The translations under genes and the position numbers were made by a program. The notes beneath the pieces are model-generated. The model did not search any database and was not told the DNA's origin. It worked only from the letters and a program-made list of their open reading frames with translations. 64,000 bases of DNA from Candidatus Latescibacterota bacterium (GTDB lineage Bacteria > Latescibacterota > UBA2968 > GCA-2709665), in the NCBI GenBank assembly GCA_963667175.2, contig CAXXXF010000014.1, forward strand, positions 288,001 to 352,000. Direction: 5' to 3'. Below are positions 29,595-36,300 of this stretch, piece by piece (the stretch's first letter is position 1; each line of letters begins with the position of its first letter).

Positions 29595-29643
29595 ATGACC
29601 ACCCTCACCGAAGCGGACGTTGAACAGGCGGCCCTTCACTGGC
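29595..29643 (+). repeat. Remnant copy of the hsdR 5' end ([16 protein letters not shown])
   Basis: Aligns with 33399-33447 ([16 protein letters not shown]). Confidence 0.85.
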
Positions 29644-29705
29644 GCGTCGACCCCGGCAGTGAGTATCCCAGGTTCCTTACCGCGCACCCACGCAGGAGGT
29701 GAGAA

Positions 29706-29948
29706 GTGTTCAAGGAACACGATCAAATAGTGCATACCGCTGATGTTCGTGGTGACGAGGGAGAGGAACTAAAACCGGGCGACGTGGGCACCATCATACA
29801 CGTCCATCGCGATAAAGCCGCCTTCGTGGTGGAGTTCATGTCACTGGATGGCGCCACGGTGGCTATTGCTACCGTGTTGGCCTCGCATGCGCGTCCCGTA
29901 GATGGCGCTGATCTCACGCATGCCCGAACGATTGCGGCGGCAATCTGA
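29706..29948 (+). CDS. DUF4926-like small protein
   Basis: KEHD.IV, LKPGDVGTIIHVH...AFVVEF. Confidence 0.75.
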   Translation: MFKEHDQIVHTADVRGDEGEELKPGDVGTIIHVHRDKAAFVVEFMSLDGATVAIATVLASHARPVDGADLTHARTIAAAI

Positions 29949-29975
29949 TTGGACGCGGTGGCGACGGCCCCTCTA

Positions 29976-30128
29976 CCCTTCGACAAGCTCAGGGACCTCA
30001 GGATCACGGACCGGCTCGGCTTCTTCGACTCCCCCACAAGGGGGAGTGATGCAGAGGTGTTAACGCTTGTTCATCGTGCGACAGATGAGATCGATGCGGG
30101 CAGACAGGAATGTCTGCCCCACCATCAA
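29976..30128. repeat. Composite palindromic repeat module (R3 CCCTTCGACAAGCTCAGGG + R2 ACTCCCCC..GGGGGAGTGAT + R5 GGGCAGACAGGAATGTCTGCCCCAC)
   Basis: Matches the modules at 38749-38920 and 40529-40810. Confidence 0.8.
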
Positions 30129-30264
30129 TCCGCTTCCGTCAGTATCGCAGTACATTCGCACTTGTGACGGACGTATCTCCTGGATACGAACGTGGTCTCG
30201 GAGCTGACGAAGGAGAATCCGGTCCGGGCCTTCATAGACGATCTGAACGCCCAGGAGGGTTCGT

Positions 30265-31752: not shown

Positions 31753-32119
31753 AAAAACGCCACCCTCTTTTCCCTTCCCGCCTTTCAGCCTCCTGACAGC
31801 CCGTCGGAAAAGTCCATCCGGACTGCTAAACCACGATCGATTCGACCCCTCGCTGTTGCCCGTCTTGACAGCCGACGGATTTCGTGCAAACAACGCCCGA
31901 GCGACCTCTTCGGTGGTCGCGTCGATGCTCACGTCTTCCTCCATCTCTCCCCCTTTTTCGCGTGGCGCATAGAGCTTACGACCTTTTGCGCTACGACCGT
32001 TCCTTCCGCAATTGCCCGATCCCATGATTGAGCCAGTGGCGCAACCTGTTCTTGCCATCTACGACAGGCTGGGACTCCCCCTCAATGGAAGAGTGACGAG
32101 AGGCGTGGTCGGGTTGGAC

Positions 32120-32153
32120 GGCGAATCGCACGTCGAGCAGGCGGCCCTTTATT
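32120..32153 (+). repeat. Third, degenerate remnant of the hsdR 5' end (ESHVEQAAL)
   Basis: acgtcgagcaggcggc is shared with the hsdR start. Confidence 0.55.
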
Positions 32154-32450
32154 TTCTGTCAACGGACACGGGCAGCGCGTATTGGGTTCCATTTTCCTTG
32201 ACTTCTCCGACAAAATTCGTGTCTTTTTCATCATGCCGCAGGGGATGCCGACTTGAACAAGGAAGGCGCCGATGACCGCGAGAAAGGAGACGGCCAAACA
32301 GGGGCGGCCTGTTACAAAAAGGACGCTCGGCAGGACTCCTGAACAACCGGAGTGTCTCCCATCGGCGATGTTTCGGGATTGGTGATTGGTGGGGAGGCGG
32401 AAGGAGAATGCGGTATCTGAGAAGGCGCAGCGCATATCGGGGGCAAACAG

Positions 32451-33038
32451 ATGCCTGAATGGTTGGATACAGGACTTCGGGTAATCACGCCACTGGGCAT
32501 GTTTGCCGTTGTCGCCATATCGGTTTACATCAACTGGAGACGTCCCAGGTACGCGAGTCTGAAGGATCAAGGAGAATGGAAGGGCGGAGTTGACGCGGAC
32601 ATAAAAAACATCAAGGAATTCATGAAGGAAATCCGCGAAGACGTCAAAGAGATTTTCGATCGACTACCTCCCAGGGCCGTCACTACGGAGAGTCCGCTCC
32701 GGCTGACGGATTTCGGAGAACGGATCGCGGAACACCTGCAGGCTCGCGATTGGGCAGGATCACTGGCGCCGACGCTGTCCAATGAGGTTGGGGGGAAACA
32801 GCCGTTTCAGATTGATGAATTCGCGAACGCTTACGTGCACGAAATGCTCGACGATGATTGGAATATGAGAATCGCGAGTTGCGCATATGAGTTCGGAATT
32901 GAAAAGGATGGCGTCCTTTCGGTGTTGAGAGTCGTGTTGCGGGATGCATTGCTTCGAACTTATGTGCCAACAATCGATAACAATCGATACCTGAATCACG
33001 CGGTGTCTGCGTCTGAACCGCTTACAATACGTCCATGA
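32451..33038 (+). CDS. Hypothetical membrane-anchored coiled-coil protein
   Basis: N-terminal TM helix, GEWKGGVD coiled coil, SPLRLT.FG motif. Confidence 0.6.
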   Translation: MPEWLDTGLRVITPLGMFAVVAISVYINWRRPRYASLKDQGEWKGGVDADIKNIKEFMKEIREDVKEIFDRLPPRAVTTESPLRLTDFGERIAEHLQARDWAGSLAPTLSNEVGGKQPFQIDEFANAYVHEMLDDDWNMRIASCAYEFGIEKDGVLSVLRVVLRDALLRTYVPTIDNNRYLNHAVSASEPLTIRP

Positions 33039-33398
33039 GACGACCAGGCGATTCTTACCCAAGGATTCGGGGTCCACGTTCGTTGCGCCATCCACGGAAT
33101 TCGTCGAATTAGCGTTTCTGGCGCGGATGTTCATTTTATGAAGGGGGCCGTAGCATTCCCGGCTTGAGCAACTCCCGGCTGGACTCGATCCCGTTGGATT
33201 GCGTTTGTTATCTCACATATTCCCCAACGGAGCGCCTGACAGTTTGATGCCTCACGCCTCGCGATCTTTCGGATGGGCTGAGGCATCATCTTTGTACGCT
33301 TCCGATCCTGAATCGCGTGACGCACGACAAAGCCATTCAGCGTCGGCCCGTCGATGTCCAGGGTACAGACCGATAAACATCCCTTCACAGGAACCCCC

Positions 33399-36300
33399 AT
33401 GACCACTCTCACAGAAGCGGACGTCGAGCAGGCGGCTCTTGACTGGCTCTCCGGTCTTGGCTGGCAGGTTTTGCATGGACCGGATATCGCGCCGGATATG
33501 CCGAATGCAGAGCGCGACGACTACCGACAGGTGGTCCTTGAGCACAGGCTTCGCGACGTCCTCGCTGAGTTGAACCCCTCCCTGCCCCTGTCCGCCCTGG
33601 ACGATGCCTGCCGCATGCTGACCCGTCCCGAAGGATCCACCCCGGAAGCCCGAAACCGCGCGTTTCACCGGATGCACGTAAACGGCGTCAACGTCGAATA
33701 TCGAGATCCGAGCGGAAACGTGCGCGGCGACCAGGTTCGCGTCATCGACTTTGAAAAGCCCGACAGGAACGATTGGCTGGCGGTCAATCAGTTCACCGTC
33801 ACGGAGAACAAGAACAACCGCAGGCCGGATATTGTGCTGTTTGTCAACGGTCTGCCCCTCGGAATCATCGAACTGAAGAATCCGGCCGACGAGGACGCCA
33901 CGGTCTGGACGGCCTGGAACCAGCTTCAGACGTACAGGGCCGAACTGCCCAGCCTGTTCTCCTTGAATGAAATGCTCGTGGTCTCGGACGGGACGGAAGC
34001 CCGAATCGGCACGCTGACGTCGGGCAAGGAGTGGTTCAAGCCATGGCGCACGGTTGCCGGGGAGACGCTGGCCGACCAGCACCTGGCGGAGCTTCAAGTG
34101 ATGCTGGAGGGCGTCTTCGAACAGAACCGTTTCCTTGCGCTCGTACGCGACTTCATCGTCTTCGACGATGACCTGTCTGCCCGACAGGCAGGCGGCAGCG
34201 GCGCGATGGAAAAGAAGATGGCGGGCTATCACCAGTTCCACGCCGTGAGGGTTGCGGTTGACGAGACGTTGCGGGCAACGAAGTTACGAAGACTGACCGG
34301 ACAAGCCGCCGAAAACGGAGGTCGGTACGAAGCAGGGCGGCAGCCGGGCGGGGAACCTGGCGATCGGCGCGTCGGCGTGGTGTGGCACACCCAGGGGTCG
34401 GGGAAGAGCCTGACGATGGCCTTCTATACGGGGGCCATCATCAGCGAACCGGCGATGGAAAACCCGACCGTGGTGGTACTCACCGACCGGAACGACCTGG
34501 ACGACCAGCTTTACGGCACGTTCTCCCGGTGCCAGGACCTGTTGCGCCAGCCGCCCACGCAGGCGGAGAGCCGGGCCGACCTGAGGAACAAACTCTCGGT
34601 GAACGCCGGGGGTGTGGTCTTCACCACCATTCAGAAATTCTTCCCCGAAGAGAAGGGCGACGCCCATCCTGAATTGTCGGACCGGCGCAACATCGTGGTG
34701 ATTGCGGATGAGGCCCACCGAAGTCAGTACGACTTCATCGACGGGTTTGCGCGACATATGCGAGACGCCTTGCCCAACGCCTCCTTTGTCGGGTTCACCG
34801 GGACACCAATAGAACTTCAGGACGCCAATACGCGGGCCGTGTTCGGCGATTACATCAGCGTCTACGACGTCCAGCGCGCCGTTCAGGACGGGGCCACGGT
34901 GCCCATCTACTACGAGAGCCGGCTGGCGAAGCTGGCCCTGGATGAGCGTGAAAAGCCGAAGATCGACCCCGATTTCGAGGAAGCCACTGAGGGCGAAGAG
35001 GTGGAGCGTCGGGAGAAACTTAAGACGAAGTGGGCGCAGTTGGAGGCGGTGGTCGGCGCCGAAAATCGGGTCAGGCAGATCGCCGAGGATATCGTGGACC
35101 ACTTCGAGCAGCGCCTCGAAGCGCTGGACGGAAAGGCGATGATTGTCTGCATGAGCCGCCGCATCTGCATCGACCTCTACCGCGAACTGGTCCGATTGCG
35201 ACCCGGCTGGCACGATGAATCTGACGAAAGGGGAACGATCAAGGTCGTAATGACCGGTTCCGCGTCCGATCCGCTCGATTGGCAGCCGCATATCCGCAAC
35301 AAGCCGCGAAGGGAGGCCCTGGCGAACCGGTTCAGAAACGCCGACGACCCGCTACGTGTCGTGCTGGTCCGGGACATGTGGCTGACGGGGTTTGACGCGC
35401 CCAGCCTGCATACGATGTACGTGGACAAGCCGATGCGCGGGCACGGGCTGATGCAGGCCATCGCCCGGGTGAACCGGGTGTTCAAGGACAAGCCCGGTGG
35501 GATCGTGGTGGACTATCTGGGACTGGCCCAGGACCTGAAACATGCACTGGCTACGTATACCGAGAGCGGTGGCACAGGCGATACGGCCGTGGACCAGAAG
35601 GAAGCGGTTGCGGTGATGCAGGAGAAGTATGAGGTGTGCTGCGGCCTGTTGCACGGGTTCGATTGGGCCGCGTGGACCGACGGCACGCCGGCTGAGCGTT
35701 TGAATCTGCTTCCCGCCGCCCAGGAACACGTCCTGGCACAGGAAGACGGAAAGGAACGGTGGCTGAACGCGGTGCGGGCGCTGTCCCAGGCCTACGCGCT
35801 GGCCGTGCCTCATCCGGAGTCGCAGCGCATCCGGGACGACGTGGCCTTTTTCCAGGCCGTCCGTGCGGCCCTGTCCAAGCGATCGACAGGCGAGCGTCGC
35901 ACCGAGGAGGAGTTGGACCATGCCGTGCGGCAGATCGTCTCCAGCGCCGTCGCCTCGGAGGGCGTGATGGATATTTTCGCCGCGGCTGGCCTCGACAAGC
36001 CAGACATTTCGGTACTGTCGGACGAGTTTCTGGCAGAGGTCCGCGGCATGGAGCGCCGCAACCTGGCCATCGAACTCTTGCAGAAGCTGCTGAAGGGCGA
36101 GGTTTCCACGAGGCGACGCAAGAACGTCGTGCAGGCCAGGTCCTTTGCCGAAATGCTTGAACAGACCCTGCGGCGGTATCAGAACCGCGCGATCGAGGCG
36201 GCGCAGGTGATCGAGGAACTGATCGAACTGGCGAAGGAGATGCGCGAGGCCAACGAACGGGGCGAACGGCTGGGGCTTTCGGAGGACGAACTGGCCTTCT

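Follow-up and report, generated by a model that had tools for sequence, protein, structure and literature searches.

Relics of hsdR starts and hsdM ends as probable recombination scars in a cargo-bearing type I restriction-modification operon of a Latescibacterota bacterium

Introduction

Defence genes cluster in islands, many of which hold neither an integrase nor a transposase, so that their mode of gene gain is at issue, and in the available part of one source the mobility mechanism of chromosomal defence islands lacking mobile-element enzymes is described as poorly understood (PMC12829572). The locus analysed here raises this question within a single operon. In a stretch of 64,000 nt from a Candidatus Latescibacterota bacterium (assembly GCA_963667175.2, contig CAXXXF010000014.1, positions 288,001 to 352,000; hereafter the window), the hsdR gene of a type I restriction-modification (RM) operon is preceded by short copies of its own start, with blocks of other genes between them. 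What are these copies, and how did the genes between them enter the operon?

Results

The operon, in which all features given below lie on the + strand, contains the three subunits of a type I RM system. hsdM (17759..19399; N6_Mtase, E 1e-100, and HsdM_N; Pfam and NCBIfam) encodes the N6 methyltransferase, and its stop overlaps with the beginning of the gene that follows. hsdS (22960..24694; Methylase_S, E 2e-17) encodes the specificity subunit and carries an in-frame DUF559 insertion (Pfam) between inverted repeats at 23531-23565 and 23979-24013 found by repeat search. The intact hsdR (33399..36563; TIGR00348, 569 bits), the start of which was set by alignment with 80 relatives, encodes an HSDR_N nuclease, an SF2 motor (SWI2_SNF2) and a C-terminal domain (T1RH-like_C). 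Just upstream of the island lies a tRNA-Ala(GGC) gene (17378..17453; Rfam), the 3' end of which has no second copy within the window.

Using a repeat finder, we located the first 16 codons of hsdR at two further places upstream of the gene and about nine of its codons at a third. The full copies form one 50-nt repeat family with members at 29594-29643, 30789-30838 (82%) and 33398-33447 (88%), the last being the true hsdR start, and a second family, 38 nt long, includes 32123-32160, where the likeness extends over about 28 nt. Head1 (29594..29643; codons 1-16, 88% to the true start) has an intact ATG and translates into 15 of the 16 residues of the HsdR start, and head2 (30789..30838; codons 1-16, 82% to head1), in which the ATG has become AGG, translates into 12 of 15; both were delimited by repeat search, consensus and alignment. 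Head3 (32123..32150; repeat search and BLAST) is a degenerate relic of codons ~6-14, agreeing with the true head in 24 of 28 nt by our own reading of the repeat alignment. A 34-nt head consensus with up to three mismatches matched exactly the three full copies, compared with no match in 100 dinucleotide shuffles, and BLAST against the whole 5.5 Mb genome returned head1 at E 2.8e-11 and head3 at E 0.007, with head2 absent from the matches listed. An earlier model reading of the letters (the sequence-only reading) had reported the hsdR start at 29595, 30790 and, degenerately, 32120, and repeat search, consensus and shuffles confirm it. The blocks are spaced at 1195, 1318 and 1291 nt, and decay follows no simple oldest-farthest order, head1 being the best preserved and head3 the worst.

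The cargo between hsdS and hsdR was assigned by Pfam and by comparison with other loci. Upstream of head1 lie a ThsB_TIR and 8xMP pair (27470..28376), a Phd-like antitoxin gene with the first 32 codons of vapC (PIN), truncated by the next block (28627..29000), and a DUF433 and DUF5615 pair (29002..29591). At other loci the ThsB_TIR and 8xMP pair usually has an hsdR head, functional or relic, at most 25 nt behind it, full Phd-PIN pairs are present in L009, L012 and L020, and the DUF433 and DUF5615 pair adjoins intact hsdR in G002, G011, G013, L013, L075 and L084. Behind head1, and fused to it in frame at the junction CTGGC, are the final ~20 codons of a gene (29644..29705) that in G012 and G009 stands before DUF4926, followed by the DUF4926 gene itself (29706..29948), a REP-like repeat (29950..30170; repeat search and genus comparison), one ~90-nt part of which is high copy in the genus, and a vapC 5' fragment with DUF433 and a HicB-like gene (30174..30782; repeat search and Pfam), the vapC fragment and DUF433 being a 90-91% copy of 28911-29221. 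Behind head2, 14 nt (30839..30852) are shared with the relic junction of G002, where they form the start of the DUF4926 upstream region, before a new junction leads into block 3, a 163-aa unknown gene and a 100-aa gene with a weak ParE-like match (30956..31752; Pfam, E 0.002-0.004), of which 65-74% copies exist elsewhere in the same and related genomes. Behind head3 stands a 195-aa protein (32451..33038) with a hydrophobic N-terminal stretch by our own reading of its sequence and no family match in Pfam or NCBIfam.

Pfam thus upholds DUF4926, DUF433 and HicB as previously named; what had been called a RelE-like pair retains a weak ParE-like match in one gene beside the unknown 163-aa protein, and the proposed membrane protein keeps its hydrophobic stretch but gains no family. 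The absence of an integrase or attC-type site was also borne out by the searches: among 54 window ORFs scanned Pfam gave no match to integrase, recombinase or transposase families, Rfam at E up to 1 matched only a tRNA and no attC-like site, and repeat search gave no inverted repeat at the block borders in the window.

The matching pattern of hsdM tails suspected on the other side of hsdS is real. The repeat finder placed 74-nt copies of the hsdM tail, 84-85% alike, at 19314, 20324 and 22142, the first two inside a 298-nt, 91% duplication that extends into the next gene. Its first copy (19313..19610) comprises the true hsdM tail and 72 codons of an AlbA_2 gene, then a stop, and its second (20323..20620) a tail relic of 29 codons with stop and the start of a full SLFN_AlbA_2/HATPase_c_4 gene (to 22148). 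Between both copies lies a 145-aa cargo gene (19877..20314) with a weak clan AA aspartic protease match (Pfam), a 42% homologue of which is flanked in L017 by an hsdR relic and hsdR. The third tail relic (22142..22215; 26 codons; repeat search and Pfam) is followed by a HEPN/MNT pair.

Two patterns anticipated from the window alone, upstream heads at other loci and a relic count that rises with cargo content, were both found. Same-strand 5' hsdR relics stand upstream of the intact gene at 17 of 80 related loci from many phyla and at 8 of 11 loci in the window's own genus, the compared loci being nearly all from metagenome-assembled genomes with one representative per species. At a cut-off of 25 bits, the 45-aa head found 22 same-strand matches in the 638 kb searched upstream of hsdR across the 80 loci, compared with 0 on the opposite strand there and 0 on either strand in the 663 kb searched downstream. 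With full-length HsdR as query, all extra matches fell within residues 1-177 apart from a 3' tail relic downstream in L026 and a single weak match in L059. The relic count grows with cargo space (Spearman 0.43, p 8e-4), and 33 of the 47 expanded loci have no detectable relic.

Across loci the relics break off after 11 to about 200 codons, and such variable end points argue against a site-specific system. Even the same TIR-8xMP module follows relics cut at about codons 15, 30, 61 and 72, and its left ends lie 0-190 nt from its first gene. Many relics contain stop codons or frameshifts, and they are 52-92% identical to functional heads. They nevertheless look like former gene starts in which the operon context of a real start is preserved: a same-strand ORF of 60 aa or more ends within -4 to +30 nt at 19 of 30 relics and 59 of 80 functional heads, compared with 392 of 5000 random positions. 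At relics and functional heads alike, the few bases immediately before the ATG track the upstream cargo, and homology between head copies begins at the ATG, as expected if hsdR is the shared anchor.

Whether the relics descend from other alleles was assessed in several ways. Differences between relics and functional heads fall on the three codon positions as 118/94/238 (19 alignments, 637 codons; chi-square p 6e-18), an excess at third positions that is not decisive, since a functional copy under selection after in situ duplication would yield part of it. The G011 relic agrees with the functional head of G013 at 133/150 compared with 120/150 for its own, and it is the only relic within the genus that is clearly closer to a foreign allele. 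The own functional head is the nearest neighbour for 11 of 23 relics and among the top five for 21 of 23; because these nearest-neighbour tests are mixed, in situ duplication is possible for some relics. In G008, two strongly diverged TIR-8xMP modules stand in tandem with a decayed head between them.

The "empty" and donor-like states implied by the sequence-only reading exist in congeners and in a contig of run X4. HicB adjoins intact hsdR in G012 and G005, with a single head each, and in G012 the whole DUF4926..DUF433..HicB block does so; in G011, G013 and G002 it is DUF433-DUF5615 that adjoins intact hsdR. In the X4 contig the HicB stop is joined directly to the hsdR ATG, with 2615 nt skipped, a joint that comes from a related organism and not from a subpopulation; X4 also has the 163-aa/ParE-like pair followed by 308 other letters and then the head3 stretch (32073-32317). 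Block order is permuted among relatives (G002; X4 contig).

At the head1 junction, the sole one comparable with both parental types, a three-way alignment shows the window to be of the DUF5615-hsdR type up to TGGC and of the DUF4926-upstream type from CTGGC. The microhomology is short, at 4-5 nt, CTGGC/TGGC occurring both at hsdR +45..49 and 62 nt upstream of DUF4926. The check for microhomology proposed in the sequence-only reading thus gives the expected result at this one junction. Break points across loci vary. One of them, after the same CTGGC, is common to head1, head2 and the G002 relic, probably through identity by descent, the alternative being a preferred site, and for this reason not every block is likely to be an independent landing.

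Discussion

Relics, their recurrence, empty states, variable break points and one microhomology junction are observed directly at this locus and its relatives. With a probability of roughly two in three, we interpret the hsdR heads and hsdM tails as non-functional scars left where allelic versions of a single, horizontally mobile type I RM operon underwent homology-anchored illegitimate recombination with one another. Donor DNA from a related locus would bring different embedded cargo and then its own hsdR; one donor end would recombine homologously inside hsdR, a long conserved anchor, and the other, non-homologous end would be joined illegitimately through a microhomology only a few bases long, not far into the resident anchor gene. 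The first 11 to about 200 codons of the resident hsdR would then stay as a relic, with the new cargo and a complete hsdR behind it, and equivalent events anchored in hsdM would leave relics of its 3' tail behind that gene. In an array that already contained several heads and related copies of cargo, ordinary homologous (unequal) recombination could permute, duplicate and delete blocks, and no dedicated recombinase would be needed. The sequence-only reading had likewise taken the RM genes for anchors, each new block landing inside the old hsdR start with a fresh start of its own; empty states and the gene-start context speak for this, but independent landing does not hold for every block, and homologous reshuffling contributes as well. 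From these footprints we infer a pathway like homology-facilitated illegitimate recombination (HFIR), the direction in which each event ran and the order in which the blocks arrived.

The same structures might be made in other ways. In a Campbell-type integration, cargo and a short hsdR head would be circularised by end joining, and a single homologous crossover in the head would give head, cargo and complete hsdR; circles might leave again by head-to-head recombination, as in a RecA-driven cassette array. We regard this as unlikely, even though it predicts the exact structure seen, including the 298-nt duplication over the hsdM tail and AlbA_2 start, and would suit both the apparently circular permutation of block order among the window, G002 and the X4 contig and the 16-codon head/DUF4926-region junction common to G002 and the window behind different upstream cargo. 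However, the shortest relics give only 33-50 nt of crossover homology, where the hsdR body offers a linear donor ~3 kb; no circular form or head-to-head excision joint was seen, the X4 block-skipping joint being from a related organism; and the differing break points for the same TIR-8xMP module favour repeated primary events. Alternatively, cargo-only DNA may have entered the hsdR 5' end with a long target stretch duplicated in situ, the upstream copy then decaying. Direct repeats of 33-600 nt surround the inserts with no mobility gene, the nearest neighbour of a relic is often its own functional head, the 298-nt repeat crosses a gene boundary as a target duplication might, and repeats of 46-423 bp of such kind are reported for RM genes in the available part of PMC2853133. 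Yet the repeats always begin at the ATG, with preceding bases from different cargo, which is unexpected for a random staggered target; the last cargo gene adjoins or overlaps the head ATG alike across loci, which argues that cargo and head arrived joined; and the third-position excess, the G011 relic and the diverged tandem modules of G008 point to distinct alleles; we hold target duplication to be quite improbable.

A dedicated cassette system, with a recombinase encoded elsewhere and a site in the hsdR 5' end like that of an integron integrase at attI, would account for the identical break point of head1, head2 and the G002 relic behind CTGGC and for the similar block sizes. It fits the data poorly and is very unlikely, given break points from 11 to about 200 codons, the scattered left ends of the TIR-8xMP module, and a window with no integrase or transposase domain in the 54 ORFs scanned, no attC-like Rfam match and no border inverted repeats. 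Concatenated strain variants could also imitate tandem alleles, since metagenome assemblies are the source of the window and of nearly every locus compared, and the public runs are sponge metagenomes. Such an artefact has hardly any likelihood: the relics are truncated, decayed and far from near-identical full alleles, junctions are common to separate assemblies (G002 and the window), and short public-run contigs span them, X1 record 2 covering 29263-30059 with 1 mismatch and X3 record 20 covering 30773-31126, although X1 may be the source sample.

HFIR was reportedly worked on earlier in Acinetobacter and Streptococcus. As described in the available part of PMC3240628, one incoming end is homologous and the other is joined illegitimately, in transformation or conjugation. 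The recombination proposed here shares the two kinds of ends and the lack of a mobile-element enzyme, and at the head1 junction a microhomology of a few bases lies beside a homologous anchor. HFIR, however, is known from laboratory selections, whereas our case rests on natural footprints; the illegitimate join would here lie inside the anchor gene, thereby duplicating the anchor end, and the process would repeat at one operon and build a defence and toxin-antitoxin array. For RM genes of Helicobacter and other bacteria, Furuta, Abe and Kobayashi (2010) described insertion with long target duplication, and in the portion of their paper available (PMC2853133) the direct repeats are likewise long and variable, at RM loci and with no transposase or integrase. 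There the RM system is what was inserted, between near-identical copies of a target; here insertion is into the RM genes, the cargo consists of other defence or toxin-antitoxin genes, and the repeats run from the first codon and look like two alleles. The window does show 49-50 nt direct repeats, a single head after HicB in G012 and G005 and no mobility genes among 54 of its ORFs, but the repeats, 82-88% alike, start at the ATG, and the third-position excess and G011 favour two alleles, with the own head often nearest.

The term "integron-like" used in the sequence-only reading holds as an analogy only. The array is one-directional, made of small, mostly promoterless, co-oriented cassettes with a recurring short element and toxin-antitoxin cargo; unlike in an integron, there is no IntI, attI or attC (54 window ORFs, Rfam), and the punctuating element is a gene fragment of variable length with no conserved structure. 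Accessory genes in RM operons include the rlo genes of Campylobacter and HEPN/MNT. As in prrC of EcoprrI, an accessory gene embedded in a type I RM locus, defence or abortive-infection genes lie between the hsd genes and are co-transcribed, but the available part of the review (PMC12707154) describes the cargo and not gene-end relics or the mode of entry. A literature search found no description of such hsdR relics.

The relics are dated, positioned footprints of gene-gain events inside an operon. They would mark the entry points of new defence and toxin-antitoxin genes via ordinary recombination, a route by which clusters could grow without a mobile-element enzyme, and our results suggest that the long, conserved hsd genes, which are shared horizontally, act as anchors of homology by which the donor's adjoining cargo is drawn in. 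As the incoming piece would restore the interrupted gene, restriction would not be lost, which suggests that restriction is preserved on cargo entry and that the arrays are then open to reshuffling. Relics are countable in any genome and so offer a simple measure of RM-operon turnover, and the model is concrete enough to be tested in a tractable laboratory strain. Among the compared loci, with one representative per species, no true donor-recipient strain pair was seen. It is conceivable, if doubtful, that conserved hsd gene ends are portable sites of recombination that need no recombinase: cargo and hsdR head would loop out as one unit, pass between cells and re-insert at any related hsdR. 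This widely transferred family of type I RM operons would then consist of RecA-driven cassette platforms for defence and toxin-antitoxin genes, selected for this role, and the visible trace of such traffic would be the permuted order of blocks in congeners.

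Repeated gene ends in an expanded hsd operon

Downstream of a run of housekeeping genes ending with ligA (15252-17249, + strand), the window carries tRNA-Ala (17378-17453, +) and a type I RM operon on the same strand, with hsdM at 17759-19399, hsdS at ~22960-24694 and hsdR at 33399-36563. The distance from hsdM to hsdR is 14 kb versus ~1.3 kb in compact relatives, because genes are embedded in the operon, all of them in the orientation of the hsd genes: one truncated and one full SLFN_AlbA_2/HATPase_c_4 gene, a 145-aa gene with a weak aspartic protease match, a HEPN/MNT pair, a 767-aa protein with no known family named, ThsB_TIR with 8xMP, Phd with a vapC stump, DUF433 with DUF5615 (block 1), a DUF4926 gene and a second vapC stump with DUF433 and HicB (block 2), a 163-aa gene of no assigned family with a weak ParE-like gene (block 3), and a 195-aa protein with a hydrophobic N-terminal stretch. 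For the 145-aa gene, no donor-like locus was found in the 41 related genomes searched, 17 of which hold homologues elsewhere, at most 41% identical.

The 50 nt at the start of hsdR (1 base 5' of the ATG to codon 16) are found again at 29594-29643 (head1, 88% identical to the true start) and at 30789-30838 (head2), and ~28 nt of them at 32123-32150 (head3); such dead 5' pieces are here called relics, and the start of an intact hsdR its functional head. Searching the window with a head consensus returned the three full copies only (head1, head2 and the true start), compared with no match in 100 shuffled sequences, and BLAST of the own genome found head1 at E 2.8e-11 and head3 at 0.007. The recurrences that the sequence-only reading had placed at 29595, 30790 and, degenerately, 32120 are borne out, and the first two hold against the shuffling check that it had proposed. 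Its remark that hsdM tails mirror this pattern on the other side of hsdS was likewise correct, two further copies of the tail lying 3' of hsdM at 20324 and 22142, the former within a 298-nt, 91% duplication that also takes in AlbA_2 codons 1-72. It had also seen no integrase, and none of the integrase, recombinase and transposase families was found among the 54 window ORFs scanned.

Relics in related hsdR loci

Scanning species-representative genomes, we obtained 549 hsdR relatives, of which the best 80 (67-84% protein identity) were compared; nearly all are from metagenome-assembled genomes, with one genome per species and hence no true donor-recipient pair among them. These 80 are spread over Chloroflexota, Acidobacteriota, Gemmatimonadota, Nitrospirota, Proteobacteria and other phyla, indicating that the operon moves horizontally. 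A 45-residue head query (at least 25 bits) gave 22 extra matches in these loci, all 5' of hsdR and on the same strand; the opposite strand and the 3' side yielded no match, with ~0.64 Mb covered on either side of hsdR. The truncated heads that the sequence-only reading proposed to look for upstream of hsdR in other RM loci occur in 17 of the best 80 of 549, with 1-4 relics each (one locus, L018, is weak, E 0.5), and the relic pattern is general in the hsdR family of the window. Furthermore, the expected relation of head number to cargo content was recovered as a rise of relic number with hsdM-hsdR spacing (Spearman rho 0.43, p 8e-4, relic counts assigned by hand from the head-query results). 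None of nine loci with a spacing below 2.5 kb carries a relic, compared with 14 of 47 above it, the remaining 33 expanded loci showing none at a detection floor of ~11 codons, below which relics are invisible to our searches.

With the full hsdR protein as query, extra pieces were confined to residues 1-177, except for a weak match in locus L059 and a 3' tail relic in L026 (residues 967-1053, 73%), located 6 kb 3' of the intact hsdR, so that relics form on the 3' side too. In L026, a DUF433-DUF5615 pair lies directly 3' of hsdR (pair and tail relic at 13377-13958 and 19404-19667). Relics of the hsdM tail are rarer than those of hsdR, with two in the window and one each in L018, L053 and L085. 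Another locus (L024, 994-1460) has an hsdM 5' relic (residues 1-148) upstream of a HEPN/MNT pair and an intact hsdM, and hsdM is broken near residue 415 in L018 and in the same-genus genomes G007 and G013. In two other hsdR families, 1 of 13 loci had a relic, of 31 codons, a sample too small for a rate; searching the phylum with an hsdR paralogue from contig C9 mostly gave back the window's own family.

Cargo blocks and their states in the genus

Between relic and hsdR, the ORFs of the 17 loci are defence or toxin-antitoxin genes, comprising ThsB_TIR with 8xMP, Phd with PIN, DUF433 with DUF5615, Abi_C, AbiEi/AbiEii, RhuM-Fic, Mrr_cat, AlbA_2-HATPase_c_4, a deaminase-HATPase_c_4 protein, DUF6978 with DUF1828/1829, AAA_21 with DUF4276, and AAA_14/DUF4143, and the same modules reappear across loci in varied combinations. 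The final gene of a module adjoins or overlaps the head ATG at functional heads and relics alike: ORFs of 60 aa or more on the strand of the head end within -4 to +30 nt in 19 of 30 relics and 59 of 80 functional heads, versus 392 of 5000 random positions. Since cargo ORFs end at relics as they do at functional heads, each relic looks like what remains of the start of an hsdR that formerly stood 3' of the cargo on its left.

The orthologous locus was present in ten same-genus genomes (hsdR 81-93% identity), which supply before and after states of block gain. In G012, the order DUF4926, DUF433, HicB and intact hsdR equals block 2 of the window minus head2 and everything downstream, and DUF433, DUF5615 and intact hsdR in G011, G013 and G002 equal block 1 minus head1. 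G002 also has a permuted order (HicB, a 16-codon relic, DUF4926, DUF433, DUF5615, hsdR), G009 carries tandem copies of a DUF433-Phd unit, and in G008 a decayed relic separates two TIR-8xMP modules that are strongly diverged. With the window included, 8 of the 11 same-genus loci have relics scoring 22 bits or more, and G012 adds one of 11 codons.

In public sponge metagenomes, the head1 and head2 junctions are bridged by contigs of runs X1, possibly the source sample, and X3. Among contigs of run X4 (at least 88% likeness to the window), one joins HicB straight to the hsdR ATG, skipping 2615 nt; another runs from the block 3 pair through 308 other letters, the head3 stretch (32073-32317), 20 other letters and the last ~100 nt of HicB into hsdR. 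Each form is a single contig at a depth of ~5.6, pointing to relatives rather than a subpopulation.

Two of the same-genus hsdR genes themselves look altered. In G008 (~9834-10434), the second 8xMP gene runs on into hsdR from codon ~13, and this hsdR, having lost its own start, may be fused or dead. In G011 (10041-13238), hsdR matches in four pieces, which suggests a frameshifted gene and a restriction subunit that may be inactive there.

Junctions and the origin of the relics

One junction, that of head1, could be resolved against both parents. Here the window matches the DUF5615-hsdR loci up to TGGC (hsdR +46 to +49) and, from CTGGC on, a site 62 nt 5' of DUF4926 in G012, G009 and G002, which in these genomes is internal to a partner ORF upstream; the window has 16 hsdR codons fused in frame to the last ~20 codons of this ORF. 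Head2 and the G002 relic have a further junction in common, and 14 nt of the DUF4926 partner region come after it before the window passes to block 3. Because all three end after the same CTGGC, head1, head2 and the G002 relic in our reading probably trace back to a single primary event, with homologous exchange having spread them later, and the G002 form could have given the head1 form by deletion between two CTGGC copies. For the proposed check of whether truncation points cluster at a microhomology, this junction provides one instance (CTGGC/TGGC); across loci, end points vary from 11 to ~200 codons. Even in front of one and the same TIR-8xMP module, relics are cut at codons ~15 (L013), ~30 (L009), ~61 (L011) and ~72 (L017), separated from its first gene by 0 to 190 unrelated nt; variable end points and variable left ends of this module rule out a site-specific mechanism.

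Homology between head copies begins at the ATG, and the preceding bases follow whichever cargo lies upstream, as would be the case if two loci differing in cargo had hsdR in common as their anchor; a staggered target duplication does not predict this. We consider it fairly probable (about 0.65), judging from sequence comparison, that the relics stem from events like homology-facilitated illegitimate recombination (HFIR) followed by homologous reshuffling. Linear donor DNA would undergo a homologous crossover in hsdR, its other end would be joined illegitimately a short way within the resident hsdR, and arrays would later be reshuffled by homologous recombination. Joins would be expected near the homology edge, i.e. 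the start codon, and short relics would survive, long direct repeats being lost again through recombination. Where such events landed outside the anchor, they may have produced the vapC stumps and the truncated partner gene of DUF4926. The linear route and a single crossover of a circular intermediate would leave the same product, and we regard the circular path as unlikely.

Differences between relics and functional heads fall on codon positions 1, 2 and 3 as 118, 94 and 238, and the position-3 share of 53% exceeds that for neutral decay of one copy beside a constrained other, for which ~44% is a rough bound, estimated rather than computed by a tool. The G011 relic matches the functional head of G013 at 133/150 versus 120/150 for its own. 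Conversely, a relic's own head ranks first among its neighbours in 11 of 23 cases and among the five nearest in 21, so that either the donors were closely related or some relics formed in situ. Trimming of tandem full hsdR copies was rejected since, the L026 and L059 matches aside, the full-length query finds no relic past residue 177. Stops or frameshifts in many relics and their unequal lengths rule out a coding role; on these grounds and for the missing start codon of head2, a functional leader peptide or a regulatory role was rejected as well. A genomic island at tRNA-Ala, just 5' of hsdM, was discarded as the tRNA 3' end has no second copy in the window.

In the openly accessible full texts searched, no description of hsd gene-end relics was found; the nearest there are HFIR (PMC3240628) and insertion with long target duplication (PMC2853133). 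That accessory genes such as prrC can lie embedded in RM loci is known (PMC12707154), and no proposal for how they enter was found in this literature. The hsd relics are kin of known recombination footprints, with no new machine.

Further features of the locus

At 22454-24694, the MNT gene and hsdS form a single open frame with no intervening stop, and hsdS contains an in-frame DUF559 insertion of ~150 codons (Vsr-like endonuclease, E 1e-41) that leaves the frame open and is flanked by 35-nt inverted repeats with a REP-like motif (23531-23565 and 23979-24013). A 65-nt repeat (86%) lies in the gap from the tRNA to hsdM (17507-17571) and within the hsdM coding frame (18457-18521). The block 3 pair (30956-31752) behaves as a free-standing toxin-antitoxin-like module, with 65-74% copies outside the RM locus in the own genome (contig C17, 95760-96197) and at least nine relatives. 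The genes 3' of hsdR (36742-40471), namely an AAA-ATPase_like/PDDEXK_9 gene, a second MNT-like gene and two unknown genes (125 and 345 aa), recur there in congeners, so the island reaches past hsdR. Finally, all same-genus genomes searched contain dozens of copies of a REP-like element of ~90 nt (82-89%), which in the window lies at 29962-30050 (inside block 2), 38771-38939, 23973-24003 and 32066-96.
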